This document shows, piece by piece, positions 3,075-60,913 of a stretch of DNA of 64,000 nucleotides (position 1 is the first letter of the stretch; each line of letters starts with the position of its first letter). The stretch comes from Escherichia coli (lineage in GTDB: Bacteria; Pseudomonadota; Gammaproteobacteria; Enterobacterales; Enterobacteriaceae): assembly GCA_009729775.1 (NCBI GenBank), contig GCA_009729775.1_4081.1. One strand, given 5' to 3'. The notes under the pieces were generated by a model. The model saw only the letters and a list, made by a program, of their open reading frames with translations, ran no database searches and was not told the DNA's origin. The position numbers and the translations under genes are program-made.

Positions 3075-3103
3075 ATTATATCATTGGAACATATAATGTC
3101 CCA
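3075..3103 (-). promoter_or_regulatory. extended -10 promoter (TGaTATAAT) with upstream imperfect palindrome TGGGACAT-N3-ATGTTCCA, reading into ncRNA copy A
   Basis: plus-strand attatatca at 3075-3083 = TGATATAAT on minus; palindrome 3085-3103 resembles the one at 28306-28326. Confidence 0.4.
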
Positions 3104-3580
3104 TTACATGTATACTTTTTTTAAATCCTTAGAACAACGATCAAAAATTGTGTTTATGAATTCAACATCTTCGATAATATTCGAATCGTTAGCAACATTT
3201 TCATTTCTTGTCGTGTTCCTATATGTGTGTTCAGGATGATTGTATACCACCTTGACTACATTATTTAGGTCTATAAAATTTGACGTTTTTTGTGTATAAG
3301 AAGCCTGAAGCTTGATGAGTTTACCATCATTCTCAAGATTGGTTTTATGAATTAGTTCTTCAATGCCAGTTAAATGGCTATAGCTATCTTTTTCTTTTAC
3401 AAAAGTAATAGTAACAAGAACTGCTTTCTCATCTCCCATATCGGAAATGTTTTTTACAGCACTGATAATTTCTAAGTTTGAAAAATCTAATTCTTTAAGC
3501 ATTTTACAAATATTTCCACAAAGTTCGATAAGTGATAATTTCTTCTCTGGTAACAGAAACTTCATTGCACTTAACACCAT
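3104..3580 (-). CDS. hypothetical protein (up to 158 aa; true start probably internal)
   Basis: ORF track; 5' end overlaps 3504..3860 by 77 nt so a downstream start is likely. Confidence 0.5.
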   Translation of the reverse strand: MVLSAMKFLLPEKKLSLIELCGNICKMLKELDFSNLEIISAVKNISDMGDEKAVLVTITFVKEKDSYSHLTGIEELIHKTNLENDGKLIKLQASYTQKTSNFIDLNNVVKVVYNHPEHTYRNTTRNENVANDSNIIEDVEFINTIFDRCSKDLKKVYM

Positions 3581-27290: not shown

Positions 27291-27848
27291 TTAGCTCCCT
27301 TTGTATTGATGTTTATGTTTTGTACTGTATTTCCAGCCAGTACTATGTCTTGTTCTGATATCGTCCCAATACGATGGTAATGAACGCATCTTACGTCTTC
27401 CACGTATATCAGGTTCCCCCTCATCCTTCAGTACTGCACAAGCCATACGACGCTCTTGTTGAGTCTTAGGACGCTTGTATCGGGAGTGGTTATGTTTGTA
27501 CATATACGAACGCTTATGACGCCATTCCGTATCACGAGCTTTACGTTTATGTTCCCAGTACTCATTATAGAGTATCATGTATTCACCCATAAGTAAATCA
27601 GGAGATACAAGTAATCCTTTTTCAGTACAAAGATAATAACCCACAAACTTTTCTGGAAACATTTCGTAATAGAAACGGTTCTTCCAAAATGTTTCACGAT
27701 TCTTTTTGTTGAATTCTGCTAAATCAAATTTCATCTTACTGTGGAAACGATCTATCCCTTGATGGTCAGCAATGTATTGAAGTAGATCGTCTACAATCTC
27801 AACTTTACCAGAATCGTGATACAACGTAAATGTTTGGTCAAAAAACAT
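27291..27848 (-). CDS. hypothetical protein with strongly basic C-terminus (185 aa)
   Basis: ORF track; K/R/H-rich tail. Confidence 0.55.
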   Translation of the reverse strand: MFFDQTFTLYHDSGKVEIVDDLLQYIADHQGIDRFHSKMKFDLAEFNKKNRETFWKNRFYYEMFPEKFVGYYLCTEKGLLVSPDLLMGEYMILYNEYWEHKRKARDTEWRHKRSYMYKHNHSRYKRPKTQQERRMACAVLKDEGEPDIRGRRKMRSLPSYWDDIRTRHSTGWKYSTKHKHQYKGS

Positions 27849-27944
27849 ATGAAATCTCCTTTAAGTTAAAATAACCTAATGGAAAGTCATTCTTCCTTTA
27901 ATACATGTTCTCATGATTTGTTCCTTTTGTCAAGATATAGATAT

Positions 27945-27970
27945 AAAAAATCCCTGCCAAAAGACAGGGA
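27945..27970 (-). terminator. intrinsic terminator (TCCCTG/CAGGGA) plus U6 ending the 33.5-28.0 kb transcription unit
   Basis: perfect 6-bp stem, 8-nt loop, A6 on plus 27945-27950. Confidence 0.5.
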
Positions 27971-27990
27971 CGAAAAACTGAAATAACACA

Positions 27991-28055
27991 TGGAGTTCTT
28001 TTTAATTTAATAAAAAGTATTATTATTCTTATAAAAGTATTTATTAAGAACTCCA
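27991..28055. repeat. 10-bp perfect inverted repeat (TGGAGTTCTT / AAGAACTCCA) separated by ~45 nt of AT-rich DNA
   Basis: seen directly in the sequence between gene 28075..28263 and the terminator. Confidence 0.4.
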
Positions 28056-28074
28056 CAATATTGCTTCAAATGAA

Positions 28075-28263
28075 TCAAAAACCTTTCTGAGCTACTAGTT
28101 CACGGTACTGTGCACGAGTTAGTACACCTTGCTTGCGTAGAGCTTGTAGACCGGATAGGGTTTCACTCTTACGTTGTTCGTACATACGTTGTTCTTTGGA
28201 TTGAATAACTTTCTCTTTCTTAACTTTTGCTACTGGTTCTTGTTTCTTAGGTTGTTTAGCCAT
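28075..28263 (-). CDS. small basic protein with SHOCT-like C-terminal motif (62 aa)
   Basis: AAGGAG RBS; MAKQPKKQEPVAKVKKEK... then LSGLQALRKQGVLTRAQYRELVAQ; own promoter/operator upstream; GC ~40%. Confidence 0.55.
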   Translation of the reverse strand: MAKQPKKQEPVAKVKKEKVIQSKEQRMYEQRKSETLSGLQALRKQGVLTRAQYRELVAQKGF

Positions 28264-28294
28264 TTTATATCTCCTTCTGTATTATGATAACAAC

Positions 28295-28326
28295 ATTATA
28301 TCATGTATGGGACATAATGTCCCATA
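28295..28326 (-). promoter_or_regulatory. extended -10 promoter (TGaTATAAT) overlapped upstream by a 21-bp palindrome TATGGGACA-N3-TGTCCCATA (candidate operator)
   Basis: plus attatatca 28295-28303; palindrome 28306-28326; RBS and ATG of 28075..28263 follow. Confidence 0.5.
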
Positions 28327-28331
28327 CAATA

Positions 28332-29771
28332 TTACATATTTTCTTCAGCAAATTCAGCCAGTGGTGAACGAACAACACCTTCTAGTTCGATGACACGACA
28401 ACCTGCCCAGTCTTTAAACTTCTCAGTTACATATGTCAAACCACTGTTAACAGGACTAATAAACTTACTGTCAATCTGACTCAAGTTACCCATAATTACT
28501 ACTTTACAGTTTAACCCTGCTCGTGTCAAGATGGTTTTTGCTTGTGCAGGTGTAATGTTTTGGAATTCATCAACTACTAGAATAGTGTTGGTGAATGAAC
28601 GTCCACGTACAAAGTTTAGTGCTTTAAATTGAATAACATTACGTTTCATAATCTCTTCAATACTACCTTGTGGATTGGCATCATCTTTATGAAGAAACTC
28701 TAACGCATCAATCGCGGCTCCACAGAATGGAATCACTTTTTCTGCTTCTGAACCTGGCAAGAAACCAATATCTTCAAACTGTGAGTCTTGAGTTTTAGAG
28801 AAGATGATTCGGTCGTATTTACGTTTTTCCAGTACTAATTCTAATGCAGTAGCAATTGTAATTAGTGTTTTACCAGTACCAGCAGAACCTAGCAGTACTG
28901 TTAGATGTACATCAGGATCGAGAATACTGTTGATGGCGAGTGCTTGTTGGATATTCTTTGCTTTAATATCCCATACTTTAGCACGTAAAGCCACTGATTG
29001 TCCAATGTCTTGGAATACCAAAATATCTTCTGGTGTTAGTGTTCCATCATCTTCCTCAATTGCTGATTGTCCTTCGTACACAAATAATACGTCAGCATCA
29101 TCATATAGATAATCACCGATGCATAGATTTTGTGGAAGCAGATGTTCAATCAAGCTTTTAGAAATGTAATGATACAAACGACGACCAACTTGTTCGGATT
29201 GAATATTAGTATTGGTTAAGTTGCTGTATACTTCCCAAAAATTGATTTCCAGATGGTGTTGACCAATGTGAATCAAATCACTATCACCAATAACAATATC
29301 ATGGCGATAATCTTGTACCTCGACACCATAACTTAGTGCTTTGATACGCATGTTGATATCACGAGTTACCAGTACTGATTCTGTTGCTAAAGCTACCAGA
29401 ATGATTTTATCATCAGGTACAGTACTTTTGAGAAGGGTTTGAACTTTCTCTTCTGTACCTTTAGTACGAATTAGTGCCTCAGCTTCTTCGTTTGTAATAA
29501 CAAACAATTTGCTATCAGGATTCATATTGGTATGAACATCAGCAATATTAACACCAGTACTACTAATCTCGTCATGTGATGCATCTGCAATAATTGCTTC
29601 AATGTTACGAATAGCAACACGAGCATCGCGTGAAACATCTACATTACGACTCTTAATCGAATCTAATTCTTCCAGTACTGTAAATGGTAGAATGATTGCA
29701 GCACCATCAAAAGCAATAGATGCATTAGGGTCAGATAGTAGTACGTTTGTGTCAATTGTATATTTTTTCAT
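28332..29771 (-). CDS. phoH: PhoH2-type protein: N-terminal PIN domain fused to PhoH-like ATPase (479 aa)
   Basis: PIN signature (YTIDTNVLL, ILPFTVLEELD); Walker A VLLGSAGTGKT and PhoH-like C-terminal half. Confidence 0.85.
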   Translation of the reverse strand: MKKYTIDTNVLLSDPNASIAFDGAAIILPFTVLEELDSIKSRNVDVSRDARVAIRNIEAIIADASHDEISSTGVNIADVHTNMNPDSKLFVITNEEAEALIRTKGTEEKVQTLLKSTVPDDKIILVALATESVLVTRDINMRIKALSYGVEVQDYRHDIVIGDSDLIHIGQHHLEINFWEVYSNLTNTNIQSEQVGRRLYHYISKSLIEHLLPQNLCIGDYLYDDADVLFVYEGQSAIEEDDGTLTPEDILVFQDIGQSVALRAKVWDIKAKNIQQALAINSILDPDVHLTVLLGSAGTGKTLITIATALELVLEKRKYDRIIFSKTQDSQFEDIGFLPGSEAEKVIPFCGAAIDALEFLHKDDANPQGSIEEIMKRNVIQFKALNFVRGRSFTNTILVVDEFQNITPAQAKTILTRAGLNCKVVIMGNLSQIDSKFISPVNSGLTYVTEKFKDWAGCRVIELEGVVRSPLAEFAEENM

Positions 29772-29831
29772 AAAACATCCTTGAGTTATGAGTACATCCT
29801 TGTACTCGACTAATGTTATTGACTCGGATTA

Positions 29832-30134
29832 TTACATATTTGGTTCGTATTCAACATAGCAACGTGAACCTCGAACCTTTTCTTCCCAGCACTCCTGGTA
29901 AACAAGTTGACCAATTGAAACTGGTTCTCTTGATAGTCCATTACGTACTTCACCACTTTGGGTTTTATACATGAATGAACATTTGGACTCGCTACATTGT
30001 CCTAAACTAACAACTTCTGCGGTATTGTAGTGAATGTTGGTACGCTTAGTGTTCTCGTGATACTGTCCGAACCAAAGAACTCCTGCACCTAACAGAACAG
30101 TACAAATAAGACTTTTGATGTGTGTTTGAATCAT
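29832..30134 (-). CDS. small secreted or membrane-anchored Cys-containing protein (100 aa)
   Basis: N-terminal hydrophobic segment LICTVLLGAGVLWF; five Cys. Confidence 0.5.
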   Translation of the reverse strand: MIQTHIKSLICTVLLGAGVLWFGQYHENTKRTNIHYNTAEVVSLGQCSESKCSFMYKTQSGEVRNGLSREPVSIGQLVYQECWEEKVRGSRCYVEYEPNM

Positions 30135-30451
30135 AATGCGTTAAATCCATTGTTTAAGTATGTTTCAATATTAATTTTACCAACAGGATTACTACTGTGA
30201 ACAAAGTACTCAAACGGTTCTTTAATATTATTATCAAACATATAATCAATAAGAAACTTAGCAAAAGAATATCCAGTCTTTTCGTCTTCGCTCACATCAC
30301 CCAAGTCATGGTCGAATGATACAAATGCTGGAATTCCATTTTCAATAACATATTCACATGCACTTTTAAAGTCACGACATACCACCATATCTTGGTTTGG
30401 ATAATATAGATTTGCATCACGAATATCATCCAAAAACATTGCGTAAGACAT
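30131..30451 (-). CDS. hypothetical protein (106 aa)
   Basis: ORF track; ATGA overlap. Confidence 0.55.
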   Translation of the reverse strand: MSYAMFLDDIRDANLYYPNQDMVVCRDFKSACEYVIENGIPAFVSFDHDLGDVSEDEKTGYSFAKFLIDYMFDNNIKEPFEYFVHSSNPVGKINIETYLNNGFNAL

Positions 30452-30460
30452 GTTAAACTC

Positions 30461-31012
30461 CTATAGATAACTAATTAGTAAGTTTTCTTTTTGAATCAGA
30501 TACTCCAATTCTTGTTTTGCTGTACCGATGAAGTTCTGTGTCATAAGATTATTATATCCCGCTTCTCGATTTTGTCCCTTAGAATAACGAGAAATATGAC
30601 ATAAATTTACACCAGCAACTTCAGCACTCGCATGTTTAGCATTAGTGTATCCATCTCTAATGTGTTTCAACTCGTCATAGCTTACTTCATAGCTAAAACT
30701 ATGACTGTTTGCACCTGGGTAAATTTCAAAAGTTTTGAGTGGTCGAAGATGGGAAACAAAAATATTGTAATCCATTTCTTCTTGAACTTCACGACGCAAC
30801 GCATCTTCTAGTGAGATATCAGTACTTTCAACTGTTCCACCACATCCTCCTAGAAGTCCATCCCAACGTAATTGTAGTAATACCAGATTTACTTCTGGTA
30901 TATCATTTAACTCATAGTTTTTGTAAGGGTTGCATTTTCTTGCAAAGAAATAGCAAAATACAAAATTTGCACGTGAGCCATATTCACCAAAGGGAACTTC
31001 TTTAACACTCAT
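30461..31012 (-). CDS. Nudix-family hydrolase (183 aa)
   Basis: Nudix-box-like GGCGGTVESTDISLEDALRREVQEEMD (REVQEE core; spacing slightly atypical); start overlaps Sir2-like stop (ATGA). Confidence 0.6.
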   Translation of the reverse strand: MSVKEVPFGEYGSRANFVFCYFFARKCNPYKNYELNDIPEVNLVLLQLRWDGLLGGCGGTVESTDISLEDALRREVQEEMDYNIFVSHLRPLKTFEIYPGANSHSFSYEVSYDELKHIRDGYTNAKHASAEVAGVNLCHISRYSKGQNREAGYNNLMTQNFIGTAKQELEYLIQKENLLISYL

Positions 31013-31767
31013 TTCATACGTTCCTTAATTATAGTCTCTAGATGTGGTATTGCTTTGGTTGCTGGCTTGATAACTTTTTCATTAAACAAAAAATCATTAT
31101 CATTTTTACGAATGTTAACATTAACACTATAACATGGTAATGCTGCTGCTAATCTCGACCATACCAGTACTGTATCGCTACTACCAATTACAATAACTGT
31201 ATCATTTTCATTAAGAGATTTCAACACATTATTTCGTTCTTCGTAAATTGGTAAGCGTATACCATCAACATAACGATGATATTCTCCAATCATTACTACA
31301 TTTGGTTTAGCAAAAACATCATGTTTTGGTATGTATGGTTCGTATCCGCAGTTAATAACATTATAATCATCAGAATTGATACTATAATTTTCAATAACTT
31401 CACACAAGTTTCCATGAAGTTTAAGCTCATGACCACCAATACGAGTATAAAGATCGTCCATGTTAGAAGTCATATGAAGGAAGCAATCACCATATTGATC
31501 TTCTAACGATTTTATAAAATAATGCATTGCATTTGGTTCGCATTGTCCCAATTTTACACGTAATGTATTATAGAAAGAATGAACAACATGATATTTTGTA
31601 GTTAAACTAGCAATGTTACATACATCATTAATTTTAAATGTATCCCACAAACCATCATCAAATCGAAAAGGTTCCATCCCACTTTCAACGGAAAGTCCTG
31701 CACCTGATATAATCAGTAATCGTTTTTTACCTTCATTGCTTATAAATTTTTCTGATATCATATTCAA
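31009..31767 (-). CDS. Sir2-family (sirtuin-like, NAD-binding) protein lacking the Zn-ribbon (252 aa)
   Basis: ISGAGLSVESGMEPFR (GAGIS..SGIP.FR), TSNMDDLY (TQNID.LH-like), LHGN, VIVIGSS; no Cys4 module. Confidence 0.8.
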   Translation of the reverse strand: MNMISEKFISNEGKKRLLIISGAGLSVESGMEPFRFDDGLWDTFKINDVCNIASLTTKYHVVHSFYNTLRVKLGQCEPNAMHYFIKSLEDQYGDCFLHMTSNMDDLYTRIGGHELKLHGNLCEVIENYSINSDDYNVINCGYEPYIPKHDVFAKPNVVMIGEYHRYVDGIRLPIYEERNNVLKSLNENDTVIVIGSSDTVLVWSRLAAALPCYSVNVNIRKNDNDFLFNEKVIKPATKAIPHLETIIKERMK

Positions 31768-37576: not shown

Positions 37577-37640
37577 TATTAATTTCCTCTATTGTTTCAA
37601 TGTTGTGAGTATTATATCACTAAGATTTAAAATGTCCAAA

Positions 37641-38081
37641 CTATTTTACTGGAATATTTGAAAAGAAATCAGTCATCCAATACGCCGTCTCTTTGTTGAA
37701 TAATACTGGATCAAACTTAAGTAACTCAACATGACTTGTATCATACACGCTTGTATCGGTAATGTCAAACAAAGTTTTAGTACTGAATAGTGGATTACTC
37801 ACTAGAAAGTAGTAATCAGCAGTAGTGCTAATGTCATCATAAAACACACCGTCATACCATCCATCATCATATACATAAACAGAATCGTCATGAAGATAGT
37901 AAACTTCTATATGTAAACTCAAGTTCTTCATGGTTTCAATCATTTTTGCCGTATGAGGATTTAACTTATTGACATTTTCAAACACATAAGAGTGTTTTTT
38001 ATTCATATCAACAAATGAAAATATTCGTACTGAACGTATATTCATATTACTCCAAATAAACAAGTGAATTAATGAAATCAT
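37641..38081 (-). CDS. hypothetical protein (146 aa)
   Basis: ORF track. Confidence 0.55.
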   Translation of the reverse strand: MISLIHLFIWSNMNIRSVRIFSFVDMNKKHSYVFENVNKLNPHTAKMIETMKNLSLHIEVYYLHDDSVYVYDDGWYDGVFYDDISTTADYYFLVSNPLFSTKTLFDITDTSVYDTSHVELLKFDPVLFNKETAYWMTDFFSNIPVK

Positions 38082-42805: not shown

Positions 42806-43564
42806 TTACCTTTTGAAACGATTGAATGAGTACTCATCTTTTTCTTTACGTAAGTATCTCATTCCACCACTTTGTGGAGTAGCGAGAGTTAAGTCACCCG
42901 TCAAGAACTGACTATCAATCCATATGCGATTTCCGTAAATGAGTGGGTCTGTAACTGCTGTATGTCCACTAAAGACACAATGCACTCCATCTAACTTAGG
43001 TGCATAATATGTATTATTAGTTCTACAATAATCGAATGTTTTTCTATCCCACAAGCACTTATCAATTATATCAGCACTAAGTGATTTTGTCCCATTGACA
43101 AATCGTTCCCATGTTGTATATTCCAACGGAACTCCAGCATGAACTAACCCAATCTTCAATCCTCGGTGATTGATTTGGATAATCATAGGGAGATCCTTTA
43201 AGTACTGACGAAAGAATTGAATGCCTGTTCCCCCAACTTCATCAAGGAATTTATCACCACCATTACTTATCCAACAGTGATACCAATCTCGAAGTGTTTC
43301 CGAATCAACGCACATCATCTCATGATTACCAGCAATCATGTAACGATTTTCTCCGAACAAAAATTCAAAAAGGAGCTTTGAATTTTGTTCTCCACGGTCG
43401 ATAATATCACCTACACTGAAAACATAATCATTGTGTGTAATACCAAATTCTTTCACTGTAGCATCCCATAGTTTACCATTACCATGCAAATCACCTACAA
43501 TGTATAAATCTTTATCATCAGGTACGGTTACTTCTAAGAAGTGTTTCATTATTACTCCAACCAT
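42806..43564 (-). CDS. Ser/Thr protein phosphatase, lambda-PPase-like metallophosphatase (252 aa)
   Basis: GDLHGN, GDIIDRG, GNHE motifs; true start probably the internal MKHF. Confidence 0.75.
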   Translation of the reverse strand: MVGVIMKHFLEVTVPDDKDLYIVGDLHGNGKLWDATVKEFGITHNDYVFSVGDIIDRGEQNSKLLFEFLFGENRYMIAGNHEMMCVDSETLRDWYHCWISNGGDKFLDEVGGTGIQFFRQYLKDLPMIIQINHRGLKIGLVHAGVPLEYTTWERFVNGTKSLSADIIDKCLWDRKTFDYCRTNNTYYAPKLDGVHCVFSGHTAVTDPLIYGNRIWIDSQFLTGDLTLATPQSGGMRYLRKEKDEYSFNRFKR

Positions 43565-45314: not shown

Positions 45315-45323
45315 ATTATATCA
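45315..45323 (-). promoter_or_regulatory. extended -10 element TGATATAAT
   Basis: ~32 nt upstream of ATG of 44957..45283. Confidence 0.35.
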
Positions 45324-45340
45324 CCGAATTCTGATACGTC

Positions 45341-45646
45341 TCATGATATTCGCATTTCATCTATATATAATGAACATGATTCAGAATTATCGTCTAAACT
45401 TAAACCTAAATCGACCATTAAACCACAATGCGTTCCCCAGAATTTTTTTATGTATAGTTTTTTGCTACTATTACCTAAATCATAAACATATTCATTTTTA
45501 AACATACTTTTTAATTCTTCACATATACATTTTACTATCTTCATTAATTGATTATGATATTCGTATGGTATCCCATCAAGTTCGTTAATTATTAATGCAA
45601 AACCATTATCATAGTACTTTAGCTTATTGAATGTTTGTATATCCAT
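45341..45646 (-). CDS. hypothetical protein (101 aa)
   Basis: ORF track. Confidence 0.5.
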   Translation of the reverse strand: MDIQTFNKLKYYDNGFALIINELDGIPYEYHNQLMKIVKCICEELKSMFKNEYVYDLGNSSKKLYIKKFWGTHCGLMVDLGLSLDDNSESCSLYIDEMRIS

Positions 45647-46746: not shown

Positions 46747-46991
46747 TATAATAAACCTCTCACATAAAACATTGATGAAAATAGATAATCATTAGTACTT
46801 GTGTTTAGTTGTTTAGAAAAGTTATATTTTTTATCTTTATTTTCGTATAAAGACAATCTATAGAACATTTCTATATTTTCTAAGTATTCTTTTTGTAACA
46901 ACATCTGTGTTTTTACATTCATTATAATATACCTTAAAAGAAAAAGGGACCAACATATGATCCCTTTTGTATTAGAAATTTCCTTCTGCAA
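46746..46991 (-). CDS. hypothetical small protein (start uncertain; track start is TTG inside pseT 3' end)
   Basis: ORF track; probable true start at internal ATG (MNVKTQ...). Confidence 0.35.
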   Translation of the reverse strand: MQKEISNTKGIICWSLFLLRYIIMNVKTQMLLQKEYLENIEMFYRLSLYENKDKKYNFSKQLNTSTNDYLFSSMFYVRGLL

Positions 46992-47904
46992 CTTGCATTA
47001 CTTTCAAGCCAAGTAGCTTACGCCACATGAATACAACTTGATCGCGGTCATCATAAACCTTTTTAACATCGTAATGATCAACCACATTTTTCATGTACAG
47101 GTCGAATTTTACAACATCATCGGGACGTTTATCATCTATGTCTCGCATAAACAATGCATCGTAAGGAATACCCCAATTCTTAAGCCACTGTTCGGTATCA
47201 GCACGACACCCTTCAGTACGCCCACTCATGACGATAATCTTGCGTTTATGAAAAACTGCTTCAGCGATAATAGACAAAATAACTTCTTCATCTGGTGTAT
47301 CCTGAAGAACAGTACTTTCATCGTAAGGATTACGACCCCATTTATGAGCAAGAGTACCGTCAATATCAACGATAACAGCAGCTTCTCGTGAATTACCATA
47401 GTAACCAATGTGCATGGCCTTACTATAATAGTACGTATCTGCCATAGTGTCAATGATATTATCTTGTACTGAACGCTCACGCATGAGGTTACGTTTCTTA
47501 CAAAGTTTTACGAACTCTTTAATCTTAAAGAAAACATGAACATCTGCACCACGATCTTCATTCGGTACAAAATCTTCGTAGAAGTTCTTTTCTTTGTAGT
47601 CGTATTCATTATCTTTAGCCCAACGTTTCCATTCATCACGGAAATGTTGTTTAAGGTTCGTATCGGACACAATGATGTTCCAACCATTCTCTGCTGCTGA
47701 ATTTGCTGCACTGAACTGCATTTTAGTTACGTACTGCTCATTAGCGTCGTTGAATTTGTATGCATCATGTGACCCTGCCATTGATTCTCGAATGTCATCA
47801 CGGTTAATGTTGATAGTCTTCGATTTGGCATTTTTAATTTCTTGAACTGCCCATGTGGTTTTACCACAACCAGGCAACCCAACTGTTAGTGTAATAGTTG
47901 GCAT
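46972..47904 (-). CDS. pseT: polynucleotide 5'-kinase / 3'-phosphatase
   Basis: Walker A GLPGCGKTT; HAD phosphatase motif VIVDIDGTLA; overall resemblance to T4 PseT (from memory) including C-terminal QVAEGNF; AAGGAG RBS. Confidence 0.9.
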   Translation of the reverse strand: MPTITLTVGLPGCGKTTWAVQEIKNAKSKTININRDDIRESMAGSHDAYKFNDANEQYVTKMQFSAANSAAENGWNIIVSDTNLKQHFRDEWKRWAKDNEYDYKEKNFYEDFVPNEDRGADVHVFFKIKEFVKLCKKRNLMRERSVQDNIIDTMADTYYYSKAMHIGYYGNSREAAVIVDIDGTLAHKWGRNPYDESTVLQDTPDEEVILSIIAEAVFHKRKIIVMSGRTEGCRADTEQWLKNWGIPYDALFMRDIDDKRPDDVVKFDLYMKNVVDHYDVKKVYDDRDQVVFMWRKLLGLKVMQVAEGNF

Positions 47905-48973: not shown

Positions 48974-49000
48974 TTCTCCTTGTGCTTAGGCTAGATAGTA

Positions 49001-50143
49001 CTAAAAATCCTTTAGTACAATTTTCATGTATTTTATAAGAGTCTCTTTGTAATCAACTTTCTTATTGTTATACATTGCAAAGGCCAAGCCCTGACGATTC
49101 AGTTCATTAGTTAAACACTCCTGAACCTTCATTGCGAATTCCTTTCGCTCCAAGTGCTTGTGTTCCTTGACGAAGCTTTCTACTTCATCTTGTAATGCAT
49201 TATAGCACGAAAATACCAATTGTTCCATTCTTAATATCTTTTGCATAGCATATTCATCAGTACTGAACAATTGTTTTAAATCATCACTAGAACCATTTAA
49301 TACTGCTTCATATAAATGAGAATCAATAATAATACTATCTTTTGTAAGATGTAATGAACTGTACCAGTCAGTCTTTATTTTACACATTGTCCCATTATTT
49401 AGGATGCACACAAAACCCTCAATATCAAGCATTTTATGAACTTCCTCCACGCTTTCACGGAAGGTATTTCGTACCGGAAAAGTGTGATGAATATCTTTTC
49501 CAGTCATATTAGTACTGTACTGTGCAAGACATGGAAACTTATCACGTAGTGCTTTACCACATAGCAACTCACCACTCACACGATGACGAACGTTCAGTAC
49601 AAACAGTTGTTCTACCTGATATGGTAATACAATTCGGTACTCTGGGCTTGTATACTCCATATTAACTGTGTAACCTAAACGTTCCGCTTCGTCGATGTAC
49701 TGATACAAATTCTGGTTCTCGTTAATAAGTCGAGTACTGTTAATCGCATGGTCAGAGTACAATGCAGTATGTGATTTACAACGAATCTCACCATCATTAT
49801 CACGGTAAGTACTGATTACTGAACCATCCAACTTAGGCATCACTACTGCAATGTCATTACATGTGGTGTTGGCAGGGAACATTGTAGCAGGATTCTCATA
49901 AGCATTAAAGAACTTTTTCATAGTACGGGCAGCACAACGAATCATTTCACCTTCTTCATCAATTTCCCACATAGATCCACGGGTTTCTAATGCATTGGGT
50001 TGCATGAAATCAGTATATGATGCTAGTCGGTAACTGAATACACGATACGTGCCACCAGCAGGACTTTTATGATCTACATAAAAGAACGCATCGTTTGTAT
50101 TACATAAGTGCATTAAATCTTCATATATTTGCAAAAGGGTCAT
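49001..50143 (-). CDS. rnlA: RNA ligase 1 (T4 Rnl1-like)
   Basis: N-terminus and KxDG adenylation motif (MPKLDGS) closely parallel T4 RnlA as I recall it; 380 aa; AGAGGT RBS. Confidence 0.9.
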   Translation of the reverse strand: MTLLQIYEDLMHLCNTNDAFFYVDHKSPAGGTYRVFSYRLASYTDFMQPNALETRGSMWEIDEEGEMIRCAARTMKKFFNAYENPATMFPANTTCNDIAVVMPKLDGSVISTYRDNDGEIRCKSHTALYSDHAINSTRLINENQNLYQYIDEAERLGYTVNMEYTSPEYRIVLPYQVEQLFVLNVRHRVSGELLCGKALRDKFPCLAQYSTNMTGKDIHHTFPVRNTFRESVEEVHKMLDIEGFVCILNNGTMCKIKTDWYSSLHLTKDSIIIDSHLYEAVLNGSSDDLKQLFSTDEYAMQKILRMEQLVFSCYNALQDEVESFVKEHKHLERKEFAMKVQECLTNELNRQGLAFAMYNNKKVDYKETLIKYMKIVLKDF

Positions 50144-53053: not shown

Positions 53054-53102
53054 TCCTTGTGTTAATTATTGTTCCTTACCCATTATTATATCATGAATTA
53101 AA

Positions 53103-53399
53103 CTATTGTCCCTGTTTATAGCAATAAAGATTCTCTAATTTAAAGTCCACTAGGTCACATTCAGAACGTACTCGATTCTTGTTCCAGAATAAAATACGAA
53201 TCCTTTCATAATCACGATAAACACTAATAATGCTTCGGTGCTTGGATTTGTAGTACTCCTGTACTATCCCCAGATACACAGTCCTCAATAAAGACTTAGT
53301 TGGATAGGGCATATTCTGTGCTGACGTGATATTGTAAATCATCTTCATTGTTTCAGCAATAAGTACTTCATTTGTTCTCATTGTAATCCTTACATACAC
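53103..53399 (-). CDS. hypothetical protein (98 aa; track start is GTG, ATG at 53379-53381 more likely)
   Basis: ORF track plus hand check of start codon. Confidence 0.5.
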   Translation of the reverse strand: MYVRITMRTNEVLIAETMKMIYNITSAQNMPYPTKSLLRTVYLGIVQEYYKSKHRSIISVYRDYERIRILFWNKNRVRSECDLVDFKLENLYCYKQGQ

Positions 53400-59168: not shown

Positions 59169-59177
59169 ATTATATCA
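59169..59177 (-). promoter_or_regulatory. extended -10 promoter element TGATATAAT reading into ncRNA copy B
   Basis: plus attatatca 59169-59177. Confidence 0.4.
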
Positions 59178-59194
59178 TTAACTTATCATTTGTC

Positions 59195-60082
59195 TCAGTT
59201 ATATTCGGTTTTTTCTGTGAAATTTGTTAGTATATCAACACTAAAACTTCGAATAACCTCAATCTTGCTTGGCATGAAACGGTGTTTATTTTTAATATAC
59301 AACTCATCATCTTCAATAAAAGATGTAAAAATGAATGCCATATCTTCACGTGGAATTTGTAAAATATCACACATTTCATTTGCCGATGCTACTGGTGAAT
59401 CATTATAGTACTGAGAGTATGCACTAGATTGGCGACCGATTATAATAGAATTTCTGATTAGAAAATTACTACAGTACTGAAAATCTTTGTAGTACTTTTC
59501 AATAATGTACGGCATAAGTGCTTCTTTCACGTCTTCATAACCATTAGTACTATCAATTGCTATACAGTAATCTTCACGTTCTTTTTTCTCATGATGGTAA
59601 TCATAAACATACTCAAAGAATGAATTTTTATTTAATGAATCATTTAAACCAACTGACCCACTATAGTATGATTTTCTATCATTCATTCGATCATCTGGGC
59701 ATGATGCATACATAGAAGTGTCATGTGATGATGTACCAATATAAATTTTCTTAGTAATATGATTATACGCTATGTAATCATAATCTTGAACTCCAGTCAG
59801 CATTAACTGGAACATTAAATCATCAGGAACATCAATTAACGGGTACTCAAACTTCGAATATCTACTGCGGCAGAAGTTCTTTTCAAATGCTCGGTATGCG
59901 ATAAAATCTTTTAGATTTTTACAAGATTCATGTTCATGAGCACTACTGCTACGTACATTGACATTAGTCGATGTGCAATATCCATCCGAATCTTCGGTGA
60001 AGTTACCAGCATAATCCTTATTGTAGTCAACGATTAGATAAAGTTTCATACATCTCCAGACAAAAAAAGGACGAGATAACAA
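59195..60082 (-). CDS. hypothetical protein (295 aa)
   Basis: ORF track. Confidence 0.55.
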   Translation of the reverse strand: MLSRPFFVWRCMKLYLIVDYNKDYAGNFTEDSDGYCTSTNVNVRSSSAHEHESCKNLKDFIAYRAFEKNFCRSRYSKFEYPLIDVPDDLMFQLMLTGVQDYDYIAYNHITKKIYIGTSSHDTSMYASCPDDRMNDRKSYYSGSVGLNDSLNKNSFFEYVYDYHHEKKEREDYCIAIDSTNGYEDVKEALMPYIIEKYYKDFQYCSNFLIRNSIIIGRQSSAYSQYYNDSPVASANEMCDILQIPREDMAFIFTSFIEDDELYIKNKHRFMPSKIEVIRSFSVDILTNFTEKTEYN

Positions 60083-60842: not shown

Positions 60843-60913
60843 CTATATCTCCGTTATCAAAAAAAGATGTGAACATTATATCACAAGAATCTAATATGTT
60901 CACATTATTTTCA

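Follow-up and report, generated by a model that had tools for sequence, protein, structure and literature searches.

What relationship, if any, does a phage-encoded PIN-PhoH protein have with the small basic protein whose gene lies just downstream of it? The question is raised by a 64,000-nucleotide (nt) stretch of DNA (hereafter the window) from Escherichia coli assembly GCA_009729775.1, contig GCA_009729775.1_4081.1, in which phoH2 (gene 480) is followed on the minus strand by gene 481. Region 27800-30200 of the window was found to be 99.9% identical to Escherichia phage 121Q, an Asteriusvirus of the Rak2-like jumbo myoviruses, and 98% identical to PBECO4, phAPEC6 and similar phages. Both genes are present in the 121Q record, gene 480 as 'PhoH-like phosphate starvation-inducible' and gene 481 as 'hypothetical protein'. 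An initial annotation, noting that mycobacterial PhoH2 is paired with a small protein, had raised the possibility of a toxin/antitoxin-like or RNA-processing pair. Mycobacterial PhoH2 does have such a partner, PhoAT (PMC7390352); the extension of this pairing to 121Q was not upheld by the analysis reported here, and we consider it probable that phoH2 and gene 481 are two adjacent, independent transcription units.

Gene order in related genomes

Gene order around phoH2 was compared in 15 lineages. Wherever the small gene (gene 481 or its homolog) was present, it was located downstream of phoH2, so that the part of the synteny expectation concerned with order stood; the part concerned with immediate adjacency did not. 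The small gene follows phoH2 directly in 121Q, RaK2, the Vibrio phage, and locus L007, is separated from it by one unrelated gene in Yersinia phage fHe-Yen9-04 (S77-protease-like) and Munch (Lar-like), and is separated by two unrelated genes in XaC1, L008, and L018. The gap between phoH2 and the small gene appears as an insertion hot spot (L005 3223-3453; L003 3006-3440; L018 4475-5699), with the inserted sequences encoding a Lar-like restriction-alleviation protein in Munch, an S77-prohead-protease-like fragment in the Yersinia phage, and two Cys-rich proteins in L018. A canonical hairpin followed by a T-run was detected after phoH2 in RaK2, Yersinia, Vibrio, Munch, XaC1, L007, L008, and CBB, as well as in the T4-like phages phiEap-3 and Banach; at least eight related or analogous lineages carry a canonical intrinsic terminator between phoH2 and the next gene.

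Co-occurrence of the two genes was also found not to be strict. The Mimasvirus phages CBB, GAP32, XbC2, and Kaldavass keep phoH2 at about 70% identity and retain the promoter, the RNA element, and the nucleotidyltransferase (NTase)-like gene described below, while no match to the small gene was detected anywhere in these four genomes, even with a full-length probe at E ≤ 1. Nor was the small gene found beside the PIN-PhoH genes of T4-like phages or bacteria, including the phoH2 of Pseudoalteromonas, the closest bacterial homolog examined. Conservation of the small protein next to PhoH is thus only partial, because of the inserted genes and the absence from Mimasvirus. In mycobacteria, phoAT is positioned upstream of phoH2 and is co-transcribed with it (PMC7390352). 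The layout typical of PhoAT and VapBC, in which the partner is upstream and overlapping or co-transcribed, does not occur here, as the small gene comes after phoH2, with a promoter of its own and, in relatives, a terminator ahead of it. Based on these comparisons of sequence, a toxin/antitoxin-like or obligate pairing of phoH2 with gene 481 is not supported because of (i) the terminators, (ii) the separate promoter, (iii) the inserted genes, (iv) the loss from Mimasvirus, and (v) the layout opposite to that of PhoAT. A larger block that is collinear across lineages accounts for the conserved order of the two genes, since the next gene after the small one is conserved too.

Promoter and palindrome between phoH2 and gene 481

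The initial annotation placed gene 481 behind a palindrome and its own extended -10 promoter, and both features were recovered. By consensus scan, the promoter spans 28295..28323 on the minus strand, with a GGGACA -35-like box (28318-28323), a 17-nt spacer, and an extended -10 element of TG-A-TATAAT, TGATATAAT (28295-28303); the promoter scored 10/12 with the TG present. This promoter is a member of a recurrent class, TGRRACR-N16/17-TGATATAAT, whose -35 form was found at 10 of the 15 minus-strand TGNTATAAT sites (6 of these 10 being intergenic) and which occurs almost only on the coding strand of the window. Other minus-strand copies of the class were located at 3075-3104, 37611-37650, 43065-43095, 45315-45350, 53085-53120, 59169-59205, and 60875-60910. 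A similar promoter type, termed 'divergent RpoD-like' and having TGAAACG as its -35 box, has been reported in CBB and GAP32 (PMC5259590). When relatives were examined, the small gene was always preceded by TGnTATAAT (RaK2, Yersinia, Vibrio, Munch, L018, and A4), which in Mimasvirus is found ahead of the RNA element, with an extended -10 at orthologous positions in at least 10 lineages. The small-gene promoter of RaK2 and A4 reads TTGACA-N17-TATAAT, and the annotators of fHe-Yen9-03 had marked the same promoter. The predicted sigma-70 extended -10 promoter of gene 481 is, therefore, conserved across the clade.

The palindrome, TGTATGGGACA-TTA-TGTCCCATACA (28304..28328), has perfect 11-bp arms and a 3-nt loop. 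It shares sequence with the -35 box and spacer of the gene 481 promoter and begins 3 nt past the phoH2 stop codon; the left arm corresponds to the -35 box of the promoter class, and the right arm is an inverted copy of that box. As RNA it would fold into a hairpin of about -16.5 kcal/mol, and it is the longest and strongest short-range inverted repeat in the window, where it is present as a single copy. When tested as an intrinsic terminator, the 28304-28328 palindrome displayed a stable stem followed by a tail of UGAUAUAAU that has no U-tract, and the terminator scan made no call. Among relatives, ph0011 keeps the palindrome with one loop change, phage A4 does not have it, and canonical terminators were detected at the same position in other lineages. 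The promoter copy at 3075-3104 carries an imperfect inverted repeat (GGGACAT-TAT-ATGTTCC) similar to that at 28304-28328. Most likely, the palindrome would serve as a 3′ hairpin of the phoH2 message, acting as a weak terminator or stabilizer that insulates both units; this role is favored because the palindrome begins 3 nt after the phoH2 stop, where relatives have terminators. The operator function named in the initial annotation is a possible interpretation of the palindrome, not an observation.

The PhoH2 protein encoded by gene 480

The phoH2 gene (28332..29771, minus strand; identified as an open reading frame [ORF] and by Pfam, PHROG, and the 121Q annotation) encodes a PIN-PhoH fusion of 479 amino acids (aa), in agreement with its earlier description as the long PIN-fused form of PhoH. 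The N-terminal PIN_4 RNase domain (residues 1-156; 29304..29771, minus strand) was detected by Pfam (PF13638) at residues 4-156 with an E-value of 8e-20 and 71.9 bits versus a cutoff of 21.9, while the C-terminal PhoH P-loop ATPase domain (PF02562; residues 269-473; 28353..28967, minus strand) was detected at an E-value of 7e-44. PHROG 2765 spans gp480 end to end (E 5e-163), and the ATPase part is related to PDB 3b85, a 'phosphate starvation-inducible protein' (E 2e-22). Alignment of 13 phage and bacterial PhoH2 sequences, covering Rak2-like, T4-like, and bacterial homologs, revealed that the residues of both active sites are invariant, including (i) the four acidic residues of the PIN domain (D7, E35, D120, and D138), whose presence had been named as a point to check; and (ii) the Walker A motif GSAGTGKT, G295-x-AG-x-GK(T), with G295, G298, G300, and K301, and the Walker B motif DE(F)Q with D401-E402.

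The closest cellular relatives of gp480 are full-length PhoH2 proteins of marine Gammaproteobacteria, which are collinear with it and 40-44% identical. PhoH matches were obtained in 3,689 phage records, and in 301 of these the match extends over 80% or more of the 121Q protein; the carriers of the long form include the Rak2-like jumbo phages and some Straboviridae (e.g., the T4-like Slopekvirus and Pseudotevenvirus). Although outnumbered among phage PhoH genes, the long form is not rare, and the 121Q phoH2 is a standard, already annotated PhoH2. Mycobacterial PhoH2 has ATP-dependent RNA unwinding and sequence-specific RNase activities (PMC7390352). By homology to these characterized enzymes, gp480 would be a helicase that uses ATP to unwind RNA and passes it on to its own PIN RNase; its domain content and catalytic residues are directly observed, and its enzymatic activity is predicted.

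Gene 481 and its protein family

Gene 481 (28075..28263, minus strand; ORF, PHROG 24119) encodes a 62-aa basic protein whose N-terminal part is rich in Lys and is followed by a SHOCT-like helical hairpin, LQALRKQGVLTRAQYRELVAQKG. The earlier description of a small lysine-rich protein was found to be correct, with 11 K and 5 R residues, an isoelectric point of 10.3, and a net charge of about +9.5. An AAGGAG Shine-Dalgarno site is positioned ahead of the gene at 28271-28276. Compared with phage A4, gene 481 displays 19 synonymous and 8 nonsynonymous codon changes at 83% nucleotide identity, and the C-terminal LRKQGVLTRAQYRELVAQKG of the protein is unchanged between 121Q and A4. Judged from this pattern of substitution, gene 481 is a real gene under purifying selection.

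The SHOCT-like character of gp481, also proposed earlier, could be retained once the family was considered. By itself, gp481 matched SHOCT at an E-value of 0.013 and 15.6 bits, which is below the gathering score of 27; among family members, 27 of 43 matched SHOCT at E ≤ 0.1, with a best E-value of 1.6e-4, and the family profile also retrieved true SHOCT-repeat proteins from 1.8 billion representative proteins. The 'SHOCT-like' label is fair because of these matches by 27 of the 43 members and the retrieval of SHOCT-repeat proteins by the profile. The Glu of helix 2 that is strongly conserved in SHOCT is Gln throughout the gp481 family (G-V-L-T-R-x-Q-F/Y), and the invariant glycine (G46 in 121Q, G33 in the modeled Yersinia homolog) is flanked by two helices.

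The family comprises 66 clusters in 5.8 billion proteins and 22 representatives in the 1.8 billion set, and is restricted to Rak2-like jumbo phages and metagenomic contigs resembling them. At 80-100 aa, most members are longer than gp481 and have an extra C-terminal part (KG.P...Y....G.KKV...K..QW.RI). An AlphaFold model of the Yersinia homolog (predicted local distance difference test score of 79) has helices at residues 2-31 and 37-47 followed by strands at 58-66 and 73-81, the latter forming a C-terminal beta-hairpin. In the ancestral 80-100-aa family the SHOCT-like motif is, thus, internal and followed by the beta-hairpin, rather than C-terminal as initially annotated. The 62-aa gp481 of Asteriusvirus does not have the ~35-aa C-terminal beta-hairpin seen in all other lineages, and by this sequence comparison the 121Q protein is a truncated member of the 80-100-aa family.

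A structured RNA element downstream of gene 481

The 3′ part of the gene 481 unit was found by folding, conservation, and a covariance model to include a conserved structured noncoding RNA (27943..28066, minus strand). Its hairpin arms (28046-28056 and 27990-28000, minus strand) carry the motif ACTCCATGTGTT, and an intrinsic terminator, CCCTGTC-TTTT-GGCAGGG with a T-run (27945-27969, minus strand), was called by the terminator scan. The minimum free energy (MFE) of the fold is -36 kcal/mol (z -6.05), and the element is about 95% identical between 121Q and A4, compared with 83% for the flanking coding DNA. The element recurs 3′ of the small gene in Eneladusvirus, Munch-like phages, Hallingskeid, EJP2, XaC1, and metagenomic relatives, where it is recognized by a AATAATAA-rich loop and a nearly invariant 3′-strand motif, GACTCCATGTTGTT. 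It was also observed at orthologous places in loci L003, L005, L006, L008, L017, L018, and L139-L144. In Mimasvirus the small ORF is gone, and the promoter, RNA element, and terminator are kept.

A covariance model built from five sequences located the element at the orthologous place in 17 loci and gave no match in RaK2, Muenster, Vibrio, or L007. In the alignment fitted to this model, 95% of cells were paired versus 69% in shuffles and 39-58% in slid controls, and 18 of the 20 pairs change on both sides. Single-sequence folds likewise revealed that the 5′ strand varies yet keeps its pairing (ATATAA/TTATAT, TCTA/TAGA, and CGAAG/CTTCG). Plain MAFFT with RNAalifold recovered only the terminator, as the register of the 5′ strand shifts among lineages; this shift was resolved by the single-sequence folds together with the covariance model. 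Thus, covariation of the element is observed in these genomes, and the binding of this RNA by the small protein would be a prediction. A search of Rfam 15 at gathering and permissive thresholds, using the window and the RaK2, Yersinia, Munch, Vibrio, and CBB loci, gave matches at chance level only. When IMG/VR was scanned for exact copies of the 14-mer GACTCCATGTTGTT, most matches were attributable to chance and only three jumbo contigs were of relevance, and ACTCCATGT was rejected as a general promoter or target motif, since only three copies are present in the window, near the number expected by chance.

In records carrying the element, a gene of 230-250 aa starts within about 12 nt of the terminator T-run. 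This gene has weak matches to Pol-beta nucleotidyltransferases and DUF6932, is present in 29 phage records, and has no evident promoter of its own. The NTase-like gene is present in A4 and missing in 121Q and RaK2; judged from the comparison with relatives, 121Q has lost both this gene and the C-terminal beta-hairpin of the small protein. A 5′ segment of the element (GGCCTT or GGGCTT) is able to pair with the 5′ arm of the terminator, and this pairing is the MFE state in GAP32 and XbC2. Across the alignment, 71% of cells were paired in the antiterminator conformation versus 60% in shuffles, which is only suggestive of an alternative fold. An ATAAATA motif is positioned inside the element hairpin and corresponds to the predicted late-promoter consensus of CBB and GAP32 (PMC5259590).

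Several other observations were made in the region 3′ of the small gene. In Vibrio phage 2.275.O this region (L004 3813-4501) is a 690-nt intergenic sequence with a canonical T-arm-like GTGGGTTCGACTCCCATGTG, which resembles the conserved motif of the RNA element. ARAGORN found no transfer or transfer-messenger RNA in the window or in this Vibrio intergenic region with its T-arm-like GGGTTCGACTCCC, and Rfam likewise made no call in the Vibrio region. In the window, a 12-codon ORF, MRTCIKGRMTFH*, with its own Shine-Dalgarno site is located at 27876-27914 (minus strand), 27 nt upstream of gene 482. At the corresponding position, MKKLIRGRMTFH* is encoded in RaK2 and Muenster, and ph0011 encodes the identical peptide via synonymous changes; the ORF may specify a leader peptide or micro-protein.

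Two probable transcription units and the alternatives

In the favored explanation, the first unit would consist of the genes for Sir2, a Nudt16-like Nudix protein, a cREC protein, a membrane protein, and PhoH2, and would end at the stem-loop straight after the phoH2 stop codon. The most likely role of PhoH2 would be to turn over or process RNA jointly with the RNA-end/NAD-related enzymes of the upstream genes, without the need for a dedicated small partner. The second unit would begin at the sigma-70-type extended -10 promoter of the recurrent class and would contain a strong ribosome-binding site, the 62-aa SHOCT-like protein, the structured RNA, and the terminator, with the NTase-like gene included in most relatives. 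The small protein would most likely be a nucleic-acid-binding or adaptor protein working with the downstream RNA/nucleotidyltransferase module, and one possibility is that it could modulate the hairpin or terminator read-through. The conservation of promoter and terminators and the record of gene order and loss, on which this division into units draws, are observed directly. More tentatively, the promoter, SHOCT-like protein, structured RNA, terminator, and ancestral NTase-like gene might together form an undescribed regulatory module of Rak2-like phages, in which the RNA (GACUCCAUGUUGUU in a covarying hairpin) would be a switchable attenuator or small RNA, with the basic protein as the partner that binds it; in 121Q the module would then be reduced, keeping the helical part of the protein and the RNA.

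Several findings weigh against the favored explanation. Where present, the small gene is always downstream of phoH2 across the Rak2-like clade, and this placement holds in the Vibrio phage with its different upstream context, such that a looser functional link between the genes is possible. The 121Q hairpin, having no U-tract and overlapping the promoter, may be an operator instead of a terminator, and in phage A4 there is no hairpin at this position, so that phoH2 transcripts could read through into gene 481. As to the second unit, the match of the window to the RNA covariance model is weak (25.6 bits, E 0.083), the alignment behind the RNA pair counts was itself fitted to that model, and the proposed downstream partnership cannot work in that form in 121Q, which is without the NTase-like gene. 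In addition, a PDB fold search with the AlphaFold model of a full-length gp481 family member returned nothing better than an E-value of 2.

The same constant placement, together with the small interacting partner of mycobacterial PhoH2 (PMC7390352) and an intact PIN site whose restraint could be useful, is what would speak for gp481 as a PhoAT- or VapB-like partner that restrains or directs the PIN RNase of PhoH2, with the palindrome as an operator setting the level of the partner independently. We regard this as very unlikely given that the order is opposite to that of phoAT-phoH2 and is without co-transcription, a terminator is found between the genes in relatives, one or two unrelated genes are inserted in several lineages, phoH2 persists in Mimasvirus without a homolog of the small gene and in T4-like phages and bacteria without such a neighbor, and the adjacency is accounted for by block collinearity. 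A true operator that is separate from any pairing is a different proposal, in which a dimeric DNA-binding protein of phage or host origin, possibly gp481, would bind GGGACA-N3-TGTCCC over the -35 box and repress the gene 481 promoter. The perfect arms centered on the -35 box and spacer, the similar repeat at 3075-3104, and the poor prospects of a hairpin without a U-tract as a terminator are consistent with this proposal; it is nonetheless unlikely, in that the window holds a single full copy, the A4 lineage has a plain TTGACA-N17-TATAAT promoter without the palindrome, terminators occupy the position in relatives, and no candidate repressor was identified.

The RNA element might alternatively be a stand-alone small RNA, transcribed from the T4-late-like ATAAATA in the hairpin and exposing GACUCCAUGUUGUU as a single-stranded seed before the terminator hairpin and U-tail, with gp481 as an unrelated neighbor or a chaperone of this RNA. 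An ATAAATA-type motif is located 24-27 nt upstream of the conserved motif in Yersinia fHe-Yen9-04, Munch, Hallingskeid, and XaC1 (about 40 nt in 121Q) and matches the late-promoter consensus predicted for CBB and GAP32 (PMC5259590); the sequence of the 3′ strand is conserved while the 5′ strand covaries, and the element persists in Mimasvirus without the ORF. ATAAATA is, however, frequent wherever DNA is AT-rich, the window yielded no significant complementarity to a target, and the tight coupling of the terminator T-run to the start codon of the NTase-like gene fits a leader or attenuator equally well, which leaves a stand-alone small RNA rather doubtful. That gene 481 of 121Q is instead a decaying remnant without its own function could be argued from its missing ~35-aa beta-hairpin and the disappearance of its NTase-like neighbor; yet Asteriusvirus lineages with about 17% nucleotide difference are all fixed for the 62-aa form, synonymous changes outnumber nonsynonymous changes 19 to 8 with the SHOCT-like segment invariant, and the promoter, Shine-Dalgarno site, and terminator are intact, so that decay seems quite improbable.

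Genes upstream of phoH2 and RNA-repair genes in the window

Four genes identified by Pfam and annotation are positioned upstream of phoH2 on the minus strand, encoding Sir2 (31009-31767), a Nudt16-like Nudix protein (30461-31012), a cyclic-phosphate-processing receiver, cREC_REC (30131-30451), and a 100-aa Cys-rich membrane protein (gene 479; 29832-30134). These genes (29832..31767) are tightly packed and in the same orientation as phoH2, and the same Sir2/Nudix/cREC block precedes phoH2 in RaK2, Yersinia, Munch, CBB, L007, L008, and L018. The block with its membrane-protein gene is probably an operon that is closed by phoH2. Gene 479 was considered as an upstream PhoAT-like partner and rejected, as its product is transmembrane-anchored and Cys-rich, is kept only in enterobacterial relatives, and is unrelated to the protein at this place in Vibrio, XaC1, and L008. 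CBB encodes the Nudix and cREC parts as a single fusion protein of 299 aa (L017 1729-2628); the Nudix gene of Yersinia fHe-Yen9-04 is of like length, about 302 aa, when compared by length alone. An Acb1-like gene is located farther upstream in CBB and L018. These surroundings (Sir2/Nudix/cREC, with the Acb1-like gene) suggest an RNA-end/NAD-related module. Gene 479 and phoH2 are separated by 60 nt, and a second hairpin without a U-tract, GAGTACA-AGGA-TGTACTC, was detected in this gap at 29790-29807 (minus strand). At a distance of about 18-22 kb from phoH2, the minus strand of the window also encodes a polynucleotide kinase (gene 443; 46968-47900) and an RNA ligase 1/tail-fiber attachment catalyst (gene 438; 48997-50139), which are annotated as such in the record and correspond to the RnlA/PseT RNA-repair pair noted in the initial annotation.

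Based on these findings, the small neighbor should not be treated as an antitoxin-like partner of 121Q PhoH2, which corrects the first reading of the locus, and the Sir2/Nudt16-like Nudix/cREC cluster is a better place to seek functional partners of PhoH2. To our knowledge, almost nothing has been established about regulation in jumbo phages. The SHOCT-like family, the covarying RNA, and the NTase-like gene provide a testable candidate for RNA-based regulation in these phages; the RNA element and the small-protein family are uncharacterized and of moderate interest.

An over-represented octamer

In addition to the RNA element, an over-represented palindromic octamer, CAGTACTG, is new here. It was found at 42 sites in the 64 kb versus 0.66 expected from dinucleotide shuffles (maximum 4), an over-representation of about 60-fold. 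The sites occur at a density of about 1 per 1.5 kb, coding DNA included, and are often extended to CCAGTACTGG; examples are located at 28893, 29370, and 29673 (inside phoH2), 36069, and 54008. High densities of the octamer were likewise seen at the loci of RaK2, L007, L021, and Hallingskeid, and no copy was present at those of the Yersinia, Munch, and Vibrio phages. Its possible roles include those of a modification site, a binding site, or a packaging-type site. A literature search for CAGTACTG returned primer sequences only, and no PhoH or promoter data were found in the main text of the RaK2 paper.

Comparison with known systems

The short PhoH proteins of phages (PHROG 170; ~200-260 aa; cyanophage, T5-like, and Felix-like) share the PhoH ATPase domain with 121Q PhoH2 at 27-35% identity and differ from it in having no PIN domain. 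For the small protein, the closest comparison is SHOCT (PF09851), a domain that has a strongly conserved Glu and is proposed to bind nucleic acids or proteins (Eberhardt et al. 2013, PMC3581485). The gp481 family resembles SHOCT in its two short amphipathic helices joined at a conserved glycine, in the pattern L..L...G.(I/L)T..x(F/Y), and in weak matches in both directions; it differs in that gp481 is below the Pfam gathering threshold, the Glu is replaced by Gln, and the motif is internal in the ancestral family. The RNA element is comparable to terminator/antiterminator leaders and 3′UTR (untranslated region)-derived small RNAs in that a hairpin and an intrinsic terminator are positioned just upstream of a promoterless gene and, as in leaders, a 5′ segment can pair with the 5′ arm of the terminator in several lineages; in contrast to such leaders, it has no Rfam match and its alternative pairing is moderate (71% vs 60% in shuffles).

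As a two-gene arrangement, phoH2 and gene 481 are reminiscent of VapBC-type type II modules, in which a PIN nuclease is likewise encoded beside a small basic protein with a palindrome at the promoter. The arrangement departs from these modules in the reversed order of its genes, in their separate promoters, in the terminator and the inserted genes found between the two in relatives, and in the dispensability of the small gene in a whole genus. The system nearest to 121Q PhoH2 itself is the bacterial PhoH2 of M. tuberculosis and M. smegmatis, with which it shares the N-terminal PIN_4 domain with its four acidic residues and the C-terminal PhoH P-loop ATPase. Compared with mycobacterial PhoH2-PhoAT, the 121Q gene has no upstream co-transcribed PhoAT-like gene, is phage-encoded, and is positioned at the end of a Sir2/Nudix/cREC cluster.

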